A stretch of DNA of 64,000 nt from a virus. The DNA lies in the IMG/VR virus record IMGVR_UViG_3300020051_000004. One strand, given 5' to 3'. The translations under genes were made by a program, and so were the position numbers. The number at the start of each line of letters is the position of its first letter. Position 1 is the first letter of the stretch. The notes beneath the pieces are model-generated. The model made no database searches. It was not told where the DNA came from and worked only from the letters and a program-made list of their open reading frames with translations. Below, one piece after another: positions 3,268-27,119 of the stretch.

Positions 3268-4343
3268 TACAGTTTCTTTAAAAATTTCTCAAGTCCATCT
3301 TTTGAGAAGTGGGGTTTGTTCTTTTGGGTGTATTCATAAATTTCTTTGGGCGGCAAAAATTCTCCGCTGCGATTCCACTTTAAAACGTCAATGCCACTTT
3401 CGTGCATCTCGGAAACGTCATTAAGAATGGGCAACCTAATTGCTAACCTGTCAAGAGAAAAAACACTAGAAAGTTTCGCCATTGTTTTAATGGCGGCGAT
3501 TTTTCCTCTGTTTCCATCTTTTGTGTCTTCCTTGGTTGAGTCGTTGTTGGTGGAGATTATGATTTTCTTTGGATTTTTCTCAAGAAGAAAGGCAAGCATT
3601 TCAGCGGAACAGCCTAGTCCAAAGTTTACCAAGTGATTTTCGCATCCATGTTCCGTTAAAGCTAAAGAGTCTCCAATGCTCTCAACTACCGTGATTTCTC
3701 CCAGTAGGTCGATTTTTTCTCGACATTCTGGCAAATTTGGAAGGTAAAATGGATAAATCCAGCCCTGCTTTTTGCCAATGTGTTTCCACTTAGCAAAAGT
3801 GGATTCTTCTGTCCAATTTGTTGCGCGGCCCGAAAAACCAATTAAATCTTCGCTCTCATCAAAGATTGGAAACACTGTTCGGTTATACATCTGGCCCGAC
3901 ATAGCGAAGCCAGCCTGATATTTCTTCATTGTAGCGGGCGAAATATTCTTGCGCGTATAGAAAAAATAGTTCGGCGCTAATCGGGTTAAACAGTCTTTTT
4001 CGTAAATTCGTGGCATTTCAAGTTGTTTTTTAATTTTAACGGGCGCTTGTATGTTTTTGCCGTTTAGTATTTCTTTGATCTTTTTTGAGTCGGAAATGTG
4101 GTGCTTGAGTAGTTGGCCGAATGAGAATTTTTCGTTGGCCGCATAGTCAATGCAATATCCATTGTTCTTATAAACTTGAAGGCTAGTAGGGTTATCGCCG
4201 CCCCTATAAACTGCCTTTGTTCTAAAAAATTGGCCGCAATCTTGAAGCGGCCCATATCCTAAATCTAGTAAAATCTCCCGAACTCTACCAGCTTCAAACT
4301 CAAAATTGTTTGAGGTCGTAGTATTTTTGGAGAAACTTTTCAT
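3267..4343 (-). CDS. DNA primase (TOPRIM)
   Basis: RTVFPIFD...IGFSGR; VVESIGDSLAL; STNND; PILNDVSEM. Start could extend to 4385. Confidence 0.85.
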   Translation of the reverse strand: MKSFSKNTTTSNNFEFEAGRVREILLDLGYGPLQDCGQFFRTKAVYRGGDNPTSLQVYKNNGYCIDYAANEKFSFGQLLKHHISDSKKIKEILNGKNIQAPVKIKKQLEMPRIYEKDCLTRLAPNYFFYTRKNISPATMKKYQAGFAMSGQMYNRTVFPIFDESEDLIGFSGRATNWTEESTFAKWKHIGKKQGWIYPFYLPNLPECREKIDLLGEITVVESIGDSLALTEHGCENHLVNFGLGCSAEMLAFLLEKNPKKIIISTNNDSTKEDTKDGNRGKIAAIKTMAKLSSVFSLDRLAIRLPILNDVSEMHESGIDVLKWNRSGEFLPPKEIYEYTQKNKPHFSKDGLEKFLKKL

Positions 4344-4536
4344 TCTTTGCTGCGATTTGAAGGACACATTCTGGGCATAAATCATGGGTAAAAGCTTGAA
4401 GACGAGTTTCCTTGTGCTCTGTTAGTTTTGCGCTGCCCCAATAAAGGGGGAATTTACTTGAGCCGTCCGTTTGGTGCTCTGCTTCGTACCCGCAATTATC
4501 GCAGATGCATTTGTAGGTTTTGATTTGTCTAAGCAT
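4300..4536 (-). CDS. small Zn-finger protein
   Basis: CDNCG...LCPEC. Confidence 0.6.
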   Translation of the reverse strand: MLRQIKTYKCICDNCGYEAEHQTDGSSKFPLYWGSAKLTEHKETRLQAFTHDLCPECVLQIAAKNEKFLQKYYDLKQF

Positions 4537-22627: not shown

Positions 22628-23175
22628 TTAAAAACATTTTACTCGATATGGACTCCGTGATAGCGGATTTCCTTCCGTCAGCACTTCGCGTATTAAATAG
22701 AAAGTATCGCAAAGACAATCCTGCGACAATAAAAGAATATCAGGAATACGGTCAGTTTAGTATAGCTGATTTTTATGGCATTTCCAAAGAGCAATTCTGG
22801 GCGGCGATTGATTCAGATCAGTATTTTTGGATTAATATACAACCATTTCCTTGGGCCGCTCAGTTAGTTGGGTTTTTAAATGAATTTGCCCCTGTTACTA
22901 TTGCCAGTTCTCCGCATACTTCAAGAATTTGTATTGCTGATAAAGTTGAATGGCTTCAAAAGCATTTAAACATTAAGAGCGAAGGGTGTATGTTTGGCGC
23001 AAGAAAGTATTTAATGGCCAATCCAGAGACTTTATTGATTGACGACCTTCAAAGTAATGTGGATGATTTTATAACTTACGGAGGAAAAGCCATTTGCGTT
23101 CCATCGAACTGGAATACTGAAAACCTTTCATTTGAAATGATCGTAGCAAAAATTGTAAAAGGAGGACTTGTTTAA
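22624..23175 (+). CDS. HAD 5'(3')-deoxyribonucleotidase
   Basis: ILLDMDSVIADF; IASSP; KVEWL; LLIDD. Confidence 0.85.
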   Translation: MIKNILLDMDSVIADFLPSALRVLNRKYRKDNPATIKEYQEYGQFSIADFYGISKEQFWAAIDSDQYFWINIQPFPWAAQLVGFLNEFAPVTIASSPHTSRICIADKVEWLQKHLNIKSEGCMFGARKYLMANPETLLIDDLQSNVDDFITYGGKAICVPSNWNTENLSFEMIVAKIVKGGLV

Positions 23176-23747
23176 TGACTATCTACGCAGTGGCAGGAAA
23201 GAAGAGAGTGGGCAAATCAACGCTGACACAAGGCTTCATCAACCATTTTGAAAAACTTGGATTGCGGGCAAAAAATTATGCTTTTGCAGATGAGCTGAAG
23301 AAGGAACTTGATCCTCTTTTCTTGTTGAATGCGGGAGTATCAGCGTTCACAGAAGACCCAGTGGAGAAAGAGTTGTGCAGGGGTGTAATGATTGCATACG
23401 GCACAGGTTATTGGAGACAAAAAGACCCCGACCATTGGATAAAAAAACTTGCGGCCCAATTAAAAAAGGACGAAGGAGAAGTTGATGTTGCAATAATTTC
23501 TGACGCCCGTTTTGCCCAAAATGAAATTCCATGGGTTAAAAGTCTTGGCGGCAAAATCATTTATTTGATTCGCACTGACGACGAAGGTAAAGAATTTCCG
23601 CCCGCTGGAATTGATGAAGAAATCAATGATCCAGAATTAAGAAAGGCCGCTGATTTTATTTTTTCTTGGGGAAATTACGAGAATAATCTAGAAAAATGCT
23701 ATTATACTGCAAGCAACTGGCTTAGCGAAATTTTAGCACATGGATGA
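23175..23747 (+). CDS. deoxynucleoside monophosphate kinase-like
   Basis: AGKKRVGKST; AFADELK; IISDARF. Confidence 0.8.
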   Translation: MTIYAVAGKKRVGKSTLTQGFINHFEKLGLRAKNYAFADELKKELDPLFLLNAGVSAFTEDPVEKELCRGVMIAYGTGYWRQKDPDHWIKKLAAQLKKDEGEVDVAIISDARFAQNEIPWVKSLGGKIIYLIRTDDEGKEFPPAGIDEEINDPELRKAADFIFSWGNYENNLEKCYYTASNWLSEILAHG

Positions 23748-24309
23748 TTATTCTTTAGTAATGAAAGTAAAAGAAACTGGCGATAGTTCAGCCATGGCTC
23801 AAATAATTGCTCAGCATTCTGGTGTATTTACAACCGTGCTCGAAAAGTCTTTGCCAGCAGACACTTTCTCAACTCAGAGACAAGACTTTTTGGCCGAAAA
23901 GTCGTTTCATTTGTATGACGCTGTAATGAAATATCGCCCTGATAGTAAAATGAAGCTTTCAACCTTTATTGGCCAAACTATCAAGTGGAAATGCTTATCC
24001 TTAAAAGATCGCGGCCAAGATAAAGACACCGTTTTTCTTGAATCTTTAGATAATCCGCCGCCTGAAAAAGAAGAAGAATGCAGCGACAAAAAGTTCAAAA
24101 TCGAACAAATCTTTCAATTCGCTGAAAATTATCCAAACGAAACCGCAAGAAAAATCGTAACACTGCGTTATGATAGCAAGAACCACCTTCCATGGAAGGA
24201 AGTCTCAAAAAAATTAGGAATTTCAGTTGCACAAGCTACTCGTTTGAACTATGAGTTCTTAAATGCTGCGAAAGCTCACTTCTCAAACGCCGAAGGGCTT
24301 CAGGGTTAA
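23740..24309 (+). CDS. phage sigma70-family RNA polymerase sigma factor
   Basis: region 2 LYDAVMKYRPDSKMKLSTFI; region 4 IVTLRY...WKEVSKKLGIS. Confidence 0.75.
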   Translation: MDDYSLVMKVKETGDSSAMAQIIAQHSGVFTTVLEKSLPADTFSTQRQDFLAEKSFHLYDAVMKYRPDSKMKLSTFIGQTIKWKCLSLKDRGQDKDTVFLESLDNPPPEKEEECSDKKFKIEQIFQFAENYPNETARKIVTLRYDSKNHLPWKEVSKKLGISVAQATRLNYEFLNAAKAHFSNAEGLQG

Positions 24310-24320
24310 TTTTATAAGAT

Positions 24321-24632
24321 ATGAAAATCATCAGCCACCAATGTTTAATCGTTTTACAAAACGATGACGACTTTAAACTTTCCACCGAAAACTTTAAGCC
24401 AGCCAAAATTAACTTTTCCGCCACAAAAGAGTATGTTGTAGATAACCACAAGGTGGACTCTATACCCTTGCATTATTACGAAATTGAAGAATCGCCCGTT
24501 GAATTTTTAAATAAGCAACTTATCTATTTTGCTGGTCCGCTTTTTCGCTCTATAAAAAGAGAGGATTTACTCCCAGCTTTCCTTGAAGAAAGAAATAACT
24601 TCTTGTCTAAAGCGAAAAACCTGCTAGAATAA
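24321..24632 (+). CDS. hypothetical protein
   Basis: ORF. Confidence 0.6.
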   Translation: MKIISHQCLIVLQNDDDFKLSTENFKPAKINFSATKEYVVDNHKVDSIPLHYYEIEESPVEFLNKQLIYFAGPLFRSIKREDLLPAFLEERNNFLSKAKNLLE

Positions 24633-24637
24633 AATTT

Positions 24638-24895
24638 ATGAGAAACATTGATGATGAAATAAAAATGTGGGAAGAAATTTTCCGCAAAGAAAAAGAAATT
24701 TACGACAGACTCTCTCCGTCATTAAAAACCAACGTCGAGTTGGAAACTTGGCACGAAGCTATAAGTCATCTTCACACTGCTCAATCAAATATTGATAAAT
24801 TGCACAAACAGAAGAGGTCTGACTATCTTGACGCTCTTAATGACATTTTTAAGAAAAATATGGCAGAATCAAACCAACCAACAAATCACCCCTAA
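24638..24895 (+). CDS. hypothetical protein
   Basis: ORF with TGc-TAGAAT extended -10 seven nt upstream. Confidence 0.6.
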   Translation: MRNIDDEIKMWEEIFRKEKEIYDRLSPSLKTNVELETWHEAISHLHTAQSNIDKLHKQKRSDYLDALNDIFKKNMAESNQPTNHP

Positions 24896-24901
24896 AAACA
24901 C

Positions 24902-25279
24902 ATGCTAACCATCCAATCCGTAGGTAATCTCGTTAACGATCCAAAACTCGTTACTCTCAAAGACGATTTCAAAATTGTCGAATCTCGAATCGCCGTCACA
25001 AAGTCCAAAGATCGCTCTGCCTTTATTGACGTAAAGTTTAAGAATAATAAAGCGGGCGAAATCTTTCTTCAATACGCAAAACAAGGCTCTGGAGTCTCCG
25101 TGTGGGGAGAGCTTGACGAAGAAACTTGGGGAGAGGGAGAAAACAAGCGTAGTAAATGGGTAATCGTTGCTGATGGTTTCCGATTTACAGGAGGTCAGAA
25201 GTCAGATGACAAACCTGCGGCCAAAACCCAAGTGCCAAAGAAATCTGTTCAAGACAGTACCGAGGACATTCCTTTTTAA
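24902..25279 (+). CDS. ssb: single-stranded DNA-binding protein
   Basis: VGNLVNDP...GELDEETW...C-terminal EDIPF. Confidence 0.9.
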   Translation: MLTIQSVGNLVNDPKLVTLKDDFKIVESRIAVTKSKDRSAFIDVKFKNNKAGEIFLQYAKQGSGVSVWGELDEETWGEGENKRSKWVIVADGFRFTGGQKSDDKPAAKTQVPKKSVQDSTEDIPF

Positions 25280-25292
25280 TGAAAAATCTAAT

Positions 25293-25368
25293 TGCGGGAT
25301 AGAGAAATTGGTTATCTCATCAGTCTCATAAGCTGAAGTTTTCCGTTCAAGTCGGAATCCCGCAACCA
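25293..25368 (+). tRNA. tRNA-Met(CAT), initiator-like
   Basis: Cloverleaf TGCGGGA/TCCCGCA, D arm GAGA/TCTC, anticodon loop CT-CAT-AA, T arm TTCCG-TTCAAGT-CGGAA, ACCA end. Confidence 0.9.
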
Positions 25369-25394: not shown

Positions 25395-25685
25395 ATGCCC
25401 GAAGAAAAACTAACAAAGAAAGAAAAGTCAGTTGAAGCAGCCTTTGCTGAAATTCAGCCAGCTTCAACCAAGACCGTTCCAGCGGTAATCGAAGAAACAA
25501 TCCTTGAACCAAGGACAATCGAAATCGCCCCCGATTCTCCATGGAAGAAGATTCACTCAGATAGCGCCATTACAACTTTCACTATGGAAGTAAAAGGAGC
25601 AGGAACAATCTTGCGAACACAAACATATGGCTCGGAATCAATGGTATTCCTACCTAACGTTTTGGCGTCGCAGCTTCCTAAGTAA
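25395..25685 (+). CDS. hypothetical protein
   Basis: ORF with AAAACAC-ATG leader. Confidence 0.7.
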   Translation: MPEEKLTKKEKSVEAAFAEIQPASTKTVPAVIEETILEPRTIEIAPDSPWKKIHSDSAITTFTMEVKGAGTILRTQTYGSESMVFLPNVLASQLPK

Positions 25686-25689
25686 AAGA

Positions 25690-26021
25690 TTAGGCATTGC
25701 GCCGAGGTTGGTTTGCCTTGGTTAATTCATCGGCCTGTGGGTAAGCGCATAAAACCCCACACTTCTGATTTTCCTATTAAGGAAGTTGGCTTAGAAGCAG
25801 CCATCTTTTAAAGAGTAATGATCTAAACTGGTCGGAGTGTTCCTGTTACCTAGTACAACATAGAATAACGGCAAATAGCTCTTCTGTTTCTCATGTACGA
25901 GTTCAGGTTTTGGCGTAACAGCACACTTTTTGGGATCATTTTTTAAAAAAAATAGGCGGCGCTTGATTATGGCACCTTGAATGAGGTTCTTTAAAATAAC
26001 AGCGAGTTAACCCGCCAACCA
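25690..26021 (+). ncRNA. structured ncRNA region containing a 23S rRNA H43-H44 (L11-binding) mimic
   Basis: AGGAAGTTGGCTTAGAAGCAGCCATCTTTTAAAGAGT...GCGTAACAGCACACT, with a pseudoknot upstream and an ACCA-ended hairpin downstream. Confidence 0.75.
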
Positions 26022-26030
26022 CTTTCTACC

Positions 26031-27119
26031 ATGCAGTATATTCTCGAAACTCCAATCAACAGCCTCTCCTTGGGGCAAATTGGCTTCAACCTCCTCAAAG
26101 CTTCTTTTGAAGCGGGCCATGATGTTGCCTTATTCCCTATTTCAGGAGACAGCAACAAACCTCTAGAGGCTGACTTTTCTGCTTATGAAGTAGAAGAAAG
26201 TTTCGGGAATTACATTCGAGAAGCAGTCTCAAAAAGATACTCGTTCTTGGAAAAAGACGCTCCCGCAATTAGAAACTGGCACTTGAACGGCAGCGATTTG
26301 TTGAGAACAAACAACCAAGTGTTGTTAACTTTCCATGAGACGAATTATGCTACACCAGTAGAAGTCTCTATCGCTAACCTCCAAAAGAAAACTCTTTTTT
26401 GCGGCAATTTTTCCGAGAAAGTTTTTAAAAATTTTGGGGCCGAAAATGTTGGGTCGTTCAATGTAGGATTTGATTCTTCGTTTAAGCATGAAGGAAAAAC
26501 AATTCGCGCCTCTGATGTTTCTTTTTTACTTGGCGGCAAATTTGAATCGCGCAAGTTCACCAAGAGACTTTTAAATCTTTGGGCAAAAAAATTTGGCAAC
26601 AATAAGAAATATTCTTTGAATTGCCTGATCTTTAATCCATTTTTCTCTCCTGATGATAATTCTAAGCTCATCAATGATGCTCTAGAGGGAAAGAGATATT
26701 GGAACATTAATTTTTTGCCGCGTTTAAGAACAAATAAAGAAGTTGCGGCGCTTTTGGCTGCTTGTGATGTTGATTTGAGCGCGTTTGGCGGAGAGAGTTG
26801 GGGTATGGACGCATTTAACATGACATGCCTAGGTAAATGGGCCGTTTCTAACGTTTCTTGGGGCCAAGCAGCATGGGCAGATGAAGCTAATTCAGTAACA
26901 GTGTCCACTGATAAACTGCGGCCCGCTCCAGATGGGGCGTTTTTCCATCCAAACGGAGATTTTAATCAAGGTTATTTCCCAGAACTTTCGGATGAACAAA
27001 TCATTGACGCTCTTGAGAGAGTTGAAGCTAAGGCTGGAACTGTTAATGAGAATGGGTTGCAATTAGCAGAACGGATGACTTATTCAAAAACGTTGGAGCA
27101 AATTTTGTCTAATTTCTAA
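26031..27119 (+). CDS. GT4-like glycosyltransferase
   Basis: GGKFESRK...GESWGMDAFNMTCLGK. Confidence 0.75.
   Translation: MQYILETPINSLSLGQIGFNLLKASFEAGHDVALFPISGDSNKPLEADFSAYEVEESFGNYIREAVSKRYSFLEKDAPAIRNWHLNGSDLLRTNNQVLLTFHETNYATPVEVSIANLQKKTLFCGNFSEKVFKNFGAENVGSFNVGFDSSFKHEGKTIRASDVSFLLGGKFESRKFTKRLLNLWAKKFGNNKKYSLNCLIFNPFFSPDDNSKLINDALEGKRYWNINFLPRLRTNKEVAALLAACDVDLSAFGGESWGMDAFNMTCLGKWAVSNVSWGQAAWADEANSVTVSTDKLRPAPDGAFFHPNGDFNQGYFPELSDEQIIDALERVEAKAGTVNENGLQLAERMTYSKTLEQILSNF

Follow-up and report, generated by a model that had tools for sequence, protein, structure and literature searches.

A phage RNA gene that resembles the uL11-binding domain of 23S ribosomal RNA and carries a variable arm at a constant site

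Positions 25772-25935 on the plus strand of IMGVR_UViG_3300020051_000004, a stretch of DNA of 64,000 nucleotides from an uncultured phage, referred to here as the window, appear to constitute a gene for a non-coding RNA of about 165 nt. The predicted RNA is a self-closed copy of the uL11-binding domain of 23S rRNA, the GTPase-associated centre (GAC), and its GAC sequence is interrupted at one point by an inserted arm. It belongs to a phage RNA family that is very large and apparently undescribed; phages thus seem to imitate the uL11 site off the ribosome. We propose that it is a stable non-coding RNA that rebuilds the GAC away from the ribosome, where its most likely role would be to sequester host uL11, a reading to which we assign a probability of roughly 0.45. 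The evidence is presented below, from the locus to the family, and is followed by the other explanations that come into consideration.

The locus and its match to 23S rRNA

The GAC copy is found in an intergenic gap of 345 nt (25686-26030; the flanking ORFs end at 25685 and start at 26031). It consists of a 5' piece at 25780-25816 and a 3' piece at 25913-25927, separated by an insert of 96 nt (25817-25912). A tRNA-Met gene is present at 25293-25368 on the plus strand, about 400 nt upstream, with a 96-aa ORF in between. A rereading of the sequence agrees in all respects with the original prediction as to letters, coordinates, gap length and the nearby tRNA-Met. The alignment it proposed was reproduced with the real 23S rRNA of Salmonella LT2 (L012): 46 of 52 positions are identical to nucleotides 1054-1090 and 1091-1105, and the six differences are the same ones, with two compensatory pair swaps among them (1058-1080 and 1090-1101). 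The nucleotides said to be retained (U1060, A1067, A1070, A1088 and A1095) are all present, as are G1071, C1072, A1084-A1085 and the G1093.A1098 pair. Two hallmarks of the family, the U1090-A1101 pair and G1089, are both found in the window's copy. The rRNA-like letters stop at 1054 and 1105, and the flanks on both sides are devoid of rRNA sequence. A non-rRNA helix had been predicted in place of H42; it is present, with 8 of 10 positions paired, and it covaries in the family. The parts of the element are as follows.

25772-25781, plus strand: closing helix, 5' strand; pairs with 25926-25935, replaces the tip of H42 and is not rRNA-like; covaries, with all four Watson-Crick pair types in the family.
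25783-25807, plus strand: copy of H43 (E. coli 1057-1081) with the A1067 loop at 25791-25799; matches the Salmonella 23S rRNA; pairs 1057-1081, 1058-1080 and 1064-1074 covary.
25808-25816, plus strand: the 1082-1086 turn and the lower H44 5' strand (1087-1090, with A1088); 1082-1086 swaps among U-A, C-G and A-U in the family.
25817-25908, plus strand: inserted arm, predicted by RNAalifold with the relative L048 to form three hairpins (25820-25833, 25834-25882 and 25883-25907).
25909-25912, plus strand: UUUG linker from the arm to upper H44; TTTG in 41 of 52 and TTTA in 8 of 52 members of the set fetched by the 5'-half pattern.
25913-25925, plus strand: upper H44 with the A1095 loop, and the lower H44 3' strand (1091-1103); matches 23S rRNA; 1092-1099 swaps between C-G and U-A.
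25926-25935, plus strand: closing helix, 3' strand; pairs with 25772-25781; the match of covariance model R1 (see below) ends at 25938.
25936-25945, plus strand: U-rich tail UCAUUUUUU directly after the closing helix, read from the sequence; candidate 3' end.

A U run occurs at the same place in several other members, and UCAUUUUUU is a possible 3' end of the RNA.

A covariance model, R1, made from 22 other members with the window's own left out, matches the window end to end at 25769-25938 with 83.7 bits (E 1e-21). The score for the closest relative, L048, is 89.1 bits (E 3e-23), and that for real rRNA is 52-58 bits (E 1e-14 to 9e-13), with the arm states skipped. No second copy was found in the window by the R1 search. 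The resemblance of the window's element to 23S rRNA is far beyond chance.

Covariation and the conserved core

Two sets of members were compared. A set of 52 unique members in fixed register was fetched by a 5'-half pattern, which leaves the 3' half unbiased; the invariance of the 5' half in this set is partly imposed by the search pattern. A second set of 100 members was fetched by the 3' half, such that the 5' half is not fixed by the pattern, and here the fuzzy match is mildly biased. Every native GAC helix is kept in the 52 unique members. Among these, the 1058-1080 pair is G-C in 33 and A-U in 17, the 1054-1105 pair is G-C in 30, A-U in 19 and U-A in 3, and the 1092-1099 pair is C-G in 49 and U-A in 3. 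Within the closing helix, each of the four Watson-Crick pairs occurs. At the base of the arm, the insert's first three bases form pairs with the three that precede the linker in 51-52 of the 52 members, and all pair types are represented. Position 1101 is A, which pairs with U1090, in 48 of the 52, whereas it is U in rRNA. Further swaps, at 1057-1081 (A-U / C-G) and 1082-1086 (U-A / C-G / A-U), are seen in the set that was retrieved with the 3' half.

Covariation was assessed in 22 short-armed members that were aligned with MAFFT, on a structure specified by us. The fraction of cells that are paired is 93.6%, compared with 70% after shuffling and 32-54% with slid partners. The covariation score is 0.632; shuffled alignments give 0.172 (0 of 500 reach the observed value) and slid partners 0.09-0.17. 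Compensatory changes are found at 16 of the 24 pairs. Covariation is seen in every helix of the RNA.

Which parts of the domain are kept most strictly? In the 5' half, U1060, G1063, C1072, A1084, A1085, G1087, A1088, G1089 and U1090 are invariant in the 100 members, whereas position 1067 is A in 79% (G, C or U in 21%) and position 1070 is A in 82% (G in 18%). In the 3' half, G1091, G1093, A1098 and C1100 are invariant in the 52 members, and position 1095 is A in 48. Because the tertiary core is invariant while A1067 and A1070 vary, the fold recognized by uL11 appears to be kept more strictly than the factor and thiostrepton contact. The pattern is suggestive but not decisive: it speaks for the tertiary fold that binds uL11 more than for the contact of factors with A1067.

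The inserted arm

The arm is 29-369 nt long, with a median of 138 nt (152 set entries). It is always inserted between 1090 and 1091, and the same site is used in more than 150 independent contigs and in complete cultured phage genomes; the insert position is therefore constant throughout the family. In the few members that have neither UUUG nor UUUA, the return linker is a near variant; the window's insert ends in UUUG. The base helix of the arm is weak in the window (A-U, A.G, U.G, or A-U, A-U, U.G if shifted by one), and in L048 it consists of G-C, A-U and U.G.

L048 (IMGVR_UViG_3300042516_005638) has an arm of 98 nt that differs from the window's at about 20 positions. It is the only further relative of this arm type found in the viral scans; a metagenome scan for the arm type produced 47 matches, all of them chance and without GAC context. 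RNAalifold of the window and L048 gives three hairpins with 24 pairs, of which 4 are changed on both sides, 1 on one side and 0 are broken. The three-hairpin fold is also the minimum free energy structure of the insert alone. The single-sequence folding energy is not distinctive (z -0.25 for the insert alone; the other z is -0.65). The original prediction described the insert as one long hairpin. The hairpin it described does exist, as the middle one, while the arm as a whole is predicted to consist of three hairpins on a short base helix. The complementarity of AATGATCT and GGATCATT is real in the window's sequence and is not kept in L048. The pairing of AAUGAUCU with GGAUCAUU would compete with the closing helix and is likewise not kept in L048. 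Also suggested at the outset was a switch or pseudoknot in which the first letters of the insert would pair with 25933-25940. It is not supported, as the corresponding letters of L048 belong to the following tRNA-Ser, where they form the 5' side of the acceptor stem.

The arm is most likely retained in the mature RNA and not an intron, to judge from the compensatory changes that it carries, which are expected for a retained structure. A recurrent module, CACC-CCG-GNRA/UAAN-CGG-UAAGG, is found before the linker in the arms of L005, L006, L001, L013, L014, L042 and others, and the 3-bp helix that flanks it covaries; the window's arm does not have it.

Hairpins similar to the sarcin-ricin loop (SRL) are another motif seen in arms. 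SRL-like hairpins of the GUACGAGAGGAA type are present in the arms of L024, L165, L276, L272 and L257, i.e. in 5 of 153 unique arms, where about 1 is expected, and these are mostly long arms. In these few long-armed members the hairpin points to translation GTPases or SRL-directed enzymes, and not to uL11. In the window's arm, a fuzzy search for an SRL hairpin of the AGUACGAGAGGAC type found no match within 5 mismatches. An SRL copy there was considered and rejected: the SRL-like words CCUAGUAC and GUACGAG are not conserved in L048, and the fuzzy search gave no match. To judge from these arms, an SRL is not common to the whole family. With the window, a small arm type is added that has three hairpins and no sarcin-ricin element, which leaves the GAC copy alone as the common denominator of the family.

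Extent of the family and genomic context

How widespread is this RNA? A blastn comparison of the gap with INPHARED shows that homologs exist in unrelated cultured phages, as the same word of 36-37 nt occurs in unannotated intergenic DNA of large phages, frequently between annotated tRNAs. The cultured carriers number at least 10 and include Aeromonas 4_4572, Ralstonia RSP15, Vibrio 2.275.O, Pseudomonas phages pf16, UNO-G1W1, Milchi and Astolliot, Cronobacter GAP32, Pectobacterium CBB and Xanthomonas XacN1. The architecture at these loci is constant and consists of an own closing helix, the 5' half, an insert at the same point, the UUUG linker and the 3' half. No close relative of the window's phage was found in INPHARED, where the sole match is the 36-nt GAC word. 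One copy per genome is present in 5 of 5 complete cultured phage genomes.

In IMG/VR, the exact 5'-half word gives 62 loci and the exact 3'-half word at least 120. The GTDB genomes contain 69 word matches, 36 of which have the 5' half at the right distance; the remaining matches are at about chance level (by our own estimate, about 69 are expected in 596 Gb). Most GTDB carriers, which come from many phyla, are metagenome-assembled genomes (MAGs) or isolates with prophages, and 10-25 tRNAs on the same strand are often present within 8 kb. The family total is more than 180 IMG/VR contigs, 36 contigs of bacterial genomes or MAGs and at least 10 cultured large phages. Two further sequences are of interest. 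IMGVR_UViG_3300008009_000480 (L071) carries at 4341-4414 a free-standing GAC copy without an arm. At 1101 it has the U of rRNA, its own flanks do not resemble rRNA, and R1 gives it 49 bits; it is perhaps a relative of the family in uninterrupted form. The record of Paenibacillus phage Pd_22F (L004, MZ092003.1, about 83577-84413) holds true contiguous 23S rRNA that extends well beyond the GAC, near the record end. This is host DNA or contamination and is outside the family.

The element is almost always situated in an array of tRNA genes and on their strand. Such genes are present within 6 kb at 38 of 45 loci, all on the strand of the element. In L048, the element is situated between two tRNAs with gaps of only about 3 and about 6 nt, and so its ends are probably made by tRNA-processing enzymes. 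No convincing sigma-70 promoter was found for the window's element. HNH endonucleases are the only recurrent neighbour proteins (9 and 4 of the 45 loci), and no other conserved protein partner adjoins the RNA at these loci. No uL11 homologue was found in 5 complete carrier phages, whereas the control was found in 14 of 14 genomes. Given these two results, any protein partner would be the host's.

Several observations concern single loci. HNH endonuclease genes adjoin the element in Vibrio 2.275.O and Pseudomonas Milchi. In Xanthomonas phage XacN1 (L009, 1-378), the gene immediately upstream of the element carries the annotation 2'-5' RNA ligase. In the window, genes for a dNMP kinase (PHROG 139) and an SSB-like protein (PHROG 44) are present at 23175-25279, just upstream of the tRNA-Met; the T4 tRNA cluster is likewise near gene 1 (dNMP kinase). 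Elsewhere in the window, 54588-54685 on the plus strand is a tRNA-like sequence with good D and T arms, 44 nt in place of the anticodon arm and two acceptor-stem mismatches. It scores 31.3 bits with the Rfam tRNA model, just above threshold, and is not called by ARAGORN.

Comparison with known RNAs

No existing family covers the element in Rfam 15, as determined by cmscan of the window at the gathering threshold and at E<=10 and of 10 relatives at E<=1; weak sub-threshold matches to LSU rRNA were the only ones, and these were in relatives. Full-text searches of the literature turned up no account of a split-GAC phage RNA. The main text of a catalogue from 2023, which lists 10,006 viral RNA candidates, reports that none of them overlaps an rRNA prediction and names no rRNA-like RNA (PMC10690425).

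The phage RNA shares with the bacterial 23S GAC (E. coli 1051-1108, i.e. the tip of H42, H43 and H44, the 58-nt uL11/thiostrepton domain) the secondary structure, the loops and the tertiary-core nucleotides U1060-A1088, G1071, C1072 and A1084-A1085. Unlike it, the phage RNA is encoded by a separate small gene and has its own closing helix, the U1090-A1101 pair, G1089, and the extra arm and UUUR linker between 1090 and 1091; in addition, A1067 is not invariant. Ribosomal protein operon leaders (L1, L10(L12)4, S8, S15) are likewise RNAs outside the ribosome that imitate an rRNA site for a ribosomal protein. These, however, are cis-regulatory in cellular mRNA and usually copy a small motif, whereas the phage RNA stands alone and copies a whole domain. 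We know of no leader of this kind that binds uL11.

RNAs C and D of phage T4 (species 1 and 2) are likewise stable non-tRNA RNAs within a phage tRNA array. They were considered as members and rejected as not homologous, since R1 with filters off gives at best 7 bits in the T4 tRNA region. Intervening sequences of 23S rRNA and group I introns in rRNA also represent extra sequence at a fixed point of an rRNA helix. The phage arm differs from both in that it has no intron signature, can be as short as 29 nt, varies in its final base and is subject to structural selection.

Proposed function and other explanations

What might such an RNA do? The RNA would close on its own helix and rebuild the uL11-binding GAC (H43, H44 and the tertiary core). 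The variable arm would leave the 5' strand of H44 between 1090 and 1091, return by way of the UUUR linker and stay in the mature RNA. The RNA would be produced along with the phage tRNAs; its ends are probably generated by tRNA-processing enzymes or by termination at a U run. Off the ribosome, it would offer the GAC surface to a host molecule that normally recognizes the GAC. The most likely partner is host uL11, which would be taken from the free and exchangeable pool, and its sequestration would change uL11-dependent ribosomal steps, e.g. the activation of RelA. The isolated 1051-1108 RNA binds L11 tightly, and crystal structures of the L11-RNA complex have been reported (Wimberly 1999; Conn 1999). 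The tight binding of the isolated domain, together with a conservation pattern that fits, makes uL11 the best candidate. On the other side, the free pool of uL11 in the cell is small, which counts against titration, and the benefit of titrating uL11 during the lytic cycle is not obvious.

One other explanation is that the element represents host rRNA debris, either an assembly chimera or a captured fragment in decay. The high identity to 23S rRNA would suit this, and the Pd_22F record shows that true contiguous rRNA can be found in a phage record. However, nothing rRNA-like extends past 1054-1105, the closing helix is the element's own and covaries, the U1090-A1101 pair is specific to the family, and the split site is the same in more than 150 independent contigs and in complete cultured phage genomes. 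The comparative sequence data refute the debris explanation, to which we give practically no chance, and they support the original proposal of a selected, free-standing GAC copy. If the insert were removed, either as an intron or as an excised intervening sequence, a GAC copy of 70 nt would be left as the mature RNA, in one contiguous piece or in two. In favour of this, the base before the insert is always U and its final base is in most cases G, and at least one arm-less free-standing copy (L071) is known. Yet A takes the place of this G in 8 of 52 members (15%), the shortest arms, down to 29 nt, are plain hairpins, and no intron family in Rfam was matched at permissive thresholds (E<=10 for the window, E<=1 for 10 relatives). 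The arm rests on a 3-bp base with a conserved linker, and here forms a multi-hairpin junction that offers no long duplex for RNase III; moreover, it carries compensatory changes. Excision is thus very improbable. Group I introns are characterized by a catalytic core (P3-P9), a terminal G and a size above about 200 nt. A group I intron was rejected, with an insert of 96 nt here and a family minimum of 29 nt, a terminal G that is not fixed and no Rfam match. A further thought is that the element acts in cis on the tRNA or downstream transcript, as a terminator or as a processing or stability signal, and is not a trans-acting RNA. The U run after the closing helix, here and in several members, and the location within polycistronic tRNA arrays speak for it. 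The downstream neighbours, however, vary by locus (tRNAs, ORFs, separate terminators), and a near-exact rRNA tertiary core is unneeded for such roles, so that we regard a cis-acting element as quite improbable.

Two explanations also call for a trans-acting GAC copy, with targets other than uL11. One is that the RNA is a decoy or competitive inhibitor for a host's or competitor's weapon aimed at the GAC, such as a nuclease, an ADP-ribosyltransferase or a thiopeptide. The GAC is a known target in biological conflicts, and the 1095 loop is well kept. There is also a parallel with anticodon nucleases, whose tRNA targets are replaced or outcompeted by tRNAs of the phage, and the element is found in tRNA arrays, as are the counter-defence tRNAs. 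We know of no anti-phage system directed at the GAC, which weighs against a decoy, as does the variation of A1067 in 21% of members. The toxin Tre23 ADP-ribosylates H44 around 1095-1098, and it needs actively translating ribosomes; purified 23S rRNA is not modified (PMC8661411), and hence Tre23 would not take free RNA as a substrate. As Tre23 is the sole documented GAC-directed toxin, its sparing of naked rRNA weakens the decoy explanation, which we consider unlikely. The other, which seems to us less likely still, is an off-ribosome dock for translational GTPases or RelA-type factors (EF-G, EF-Tu, IF2, RF3, RelA, HflX), which would be sequestered or mis-activated there, with or without bound uL11. 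In its favour, the RNA has the two loops that contact factors, and EF-G reportedly binds isolated GAC and SRL oligonucleotides (Munishkin and Wool 1997). Some long-armed relatives add an SRL-like hairpin, and a dock is more attractive for these than for the window's member, whose arm has no SRL-like element. The affinity of factors for the isolated GAC is weak, however, and A1067 is not invariant. Neither uL11 binding nor a decoy nor a GTPase platform explains the constant position of the arm and the UUUR linker.

Significance

With sequestration of uL11 as the preferred reading, a wider proposal may be put forward tentatively. Large phages of many bacterial phyla would make a dedicated RNA that imitates the uL11/GAC site off the ribosome and captures uL11, a factor or a weapon, and would in this way reprogram or protect translation. 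If true, host-takeover RNAs would gain a new class, and a natural 'ribosome-in-pieces' would be known for the first time. The prospect is directly testable, as there are at least 10 cultured carriers with one copy each. The RNA would also account for some of the DNA in phage tRNA arrays that is neither tRNA nor annotated, and it provides structural biology with a natural, self-folding GAC that has a built-in extra arm. If the RNA works as its fold suggests, phages would have a widespread and unnoticed action on translation, through RNA mimicry of a functional centre of the ribosome.
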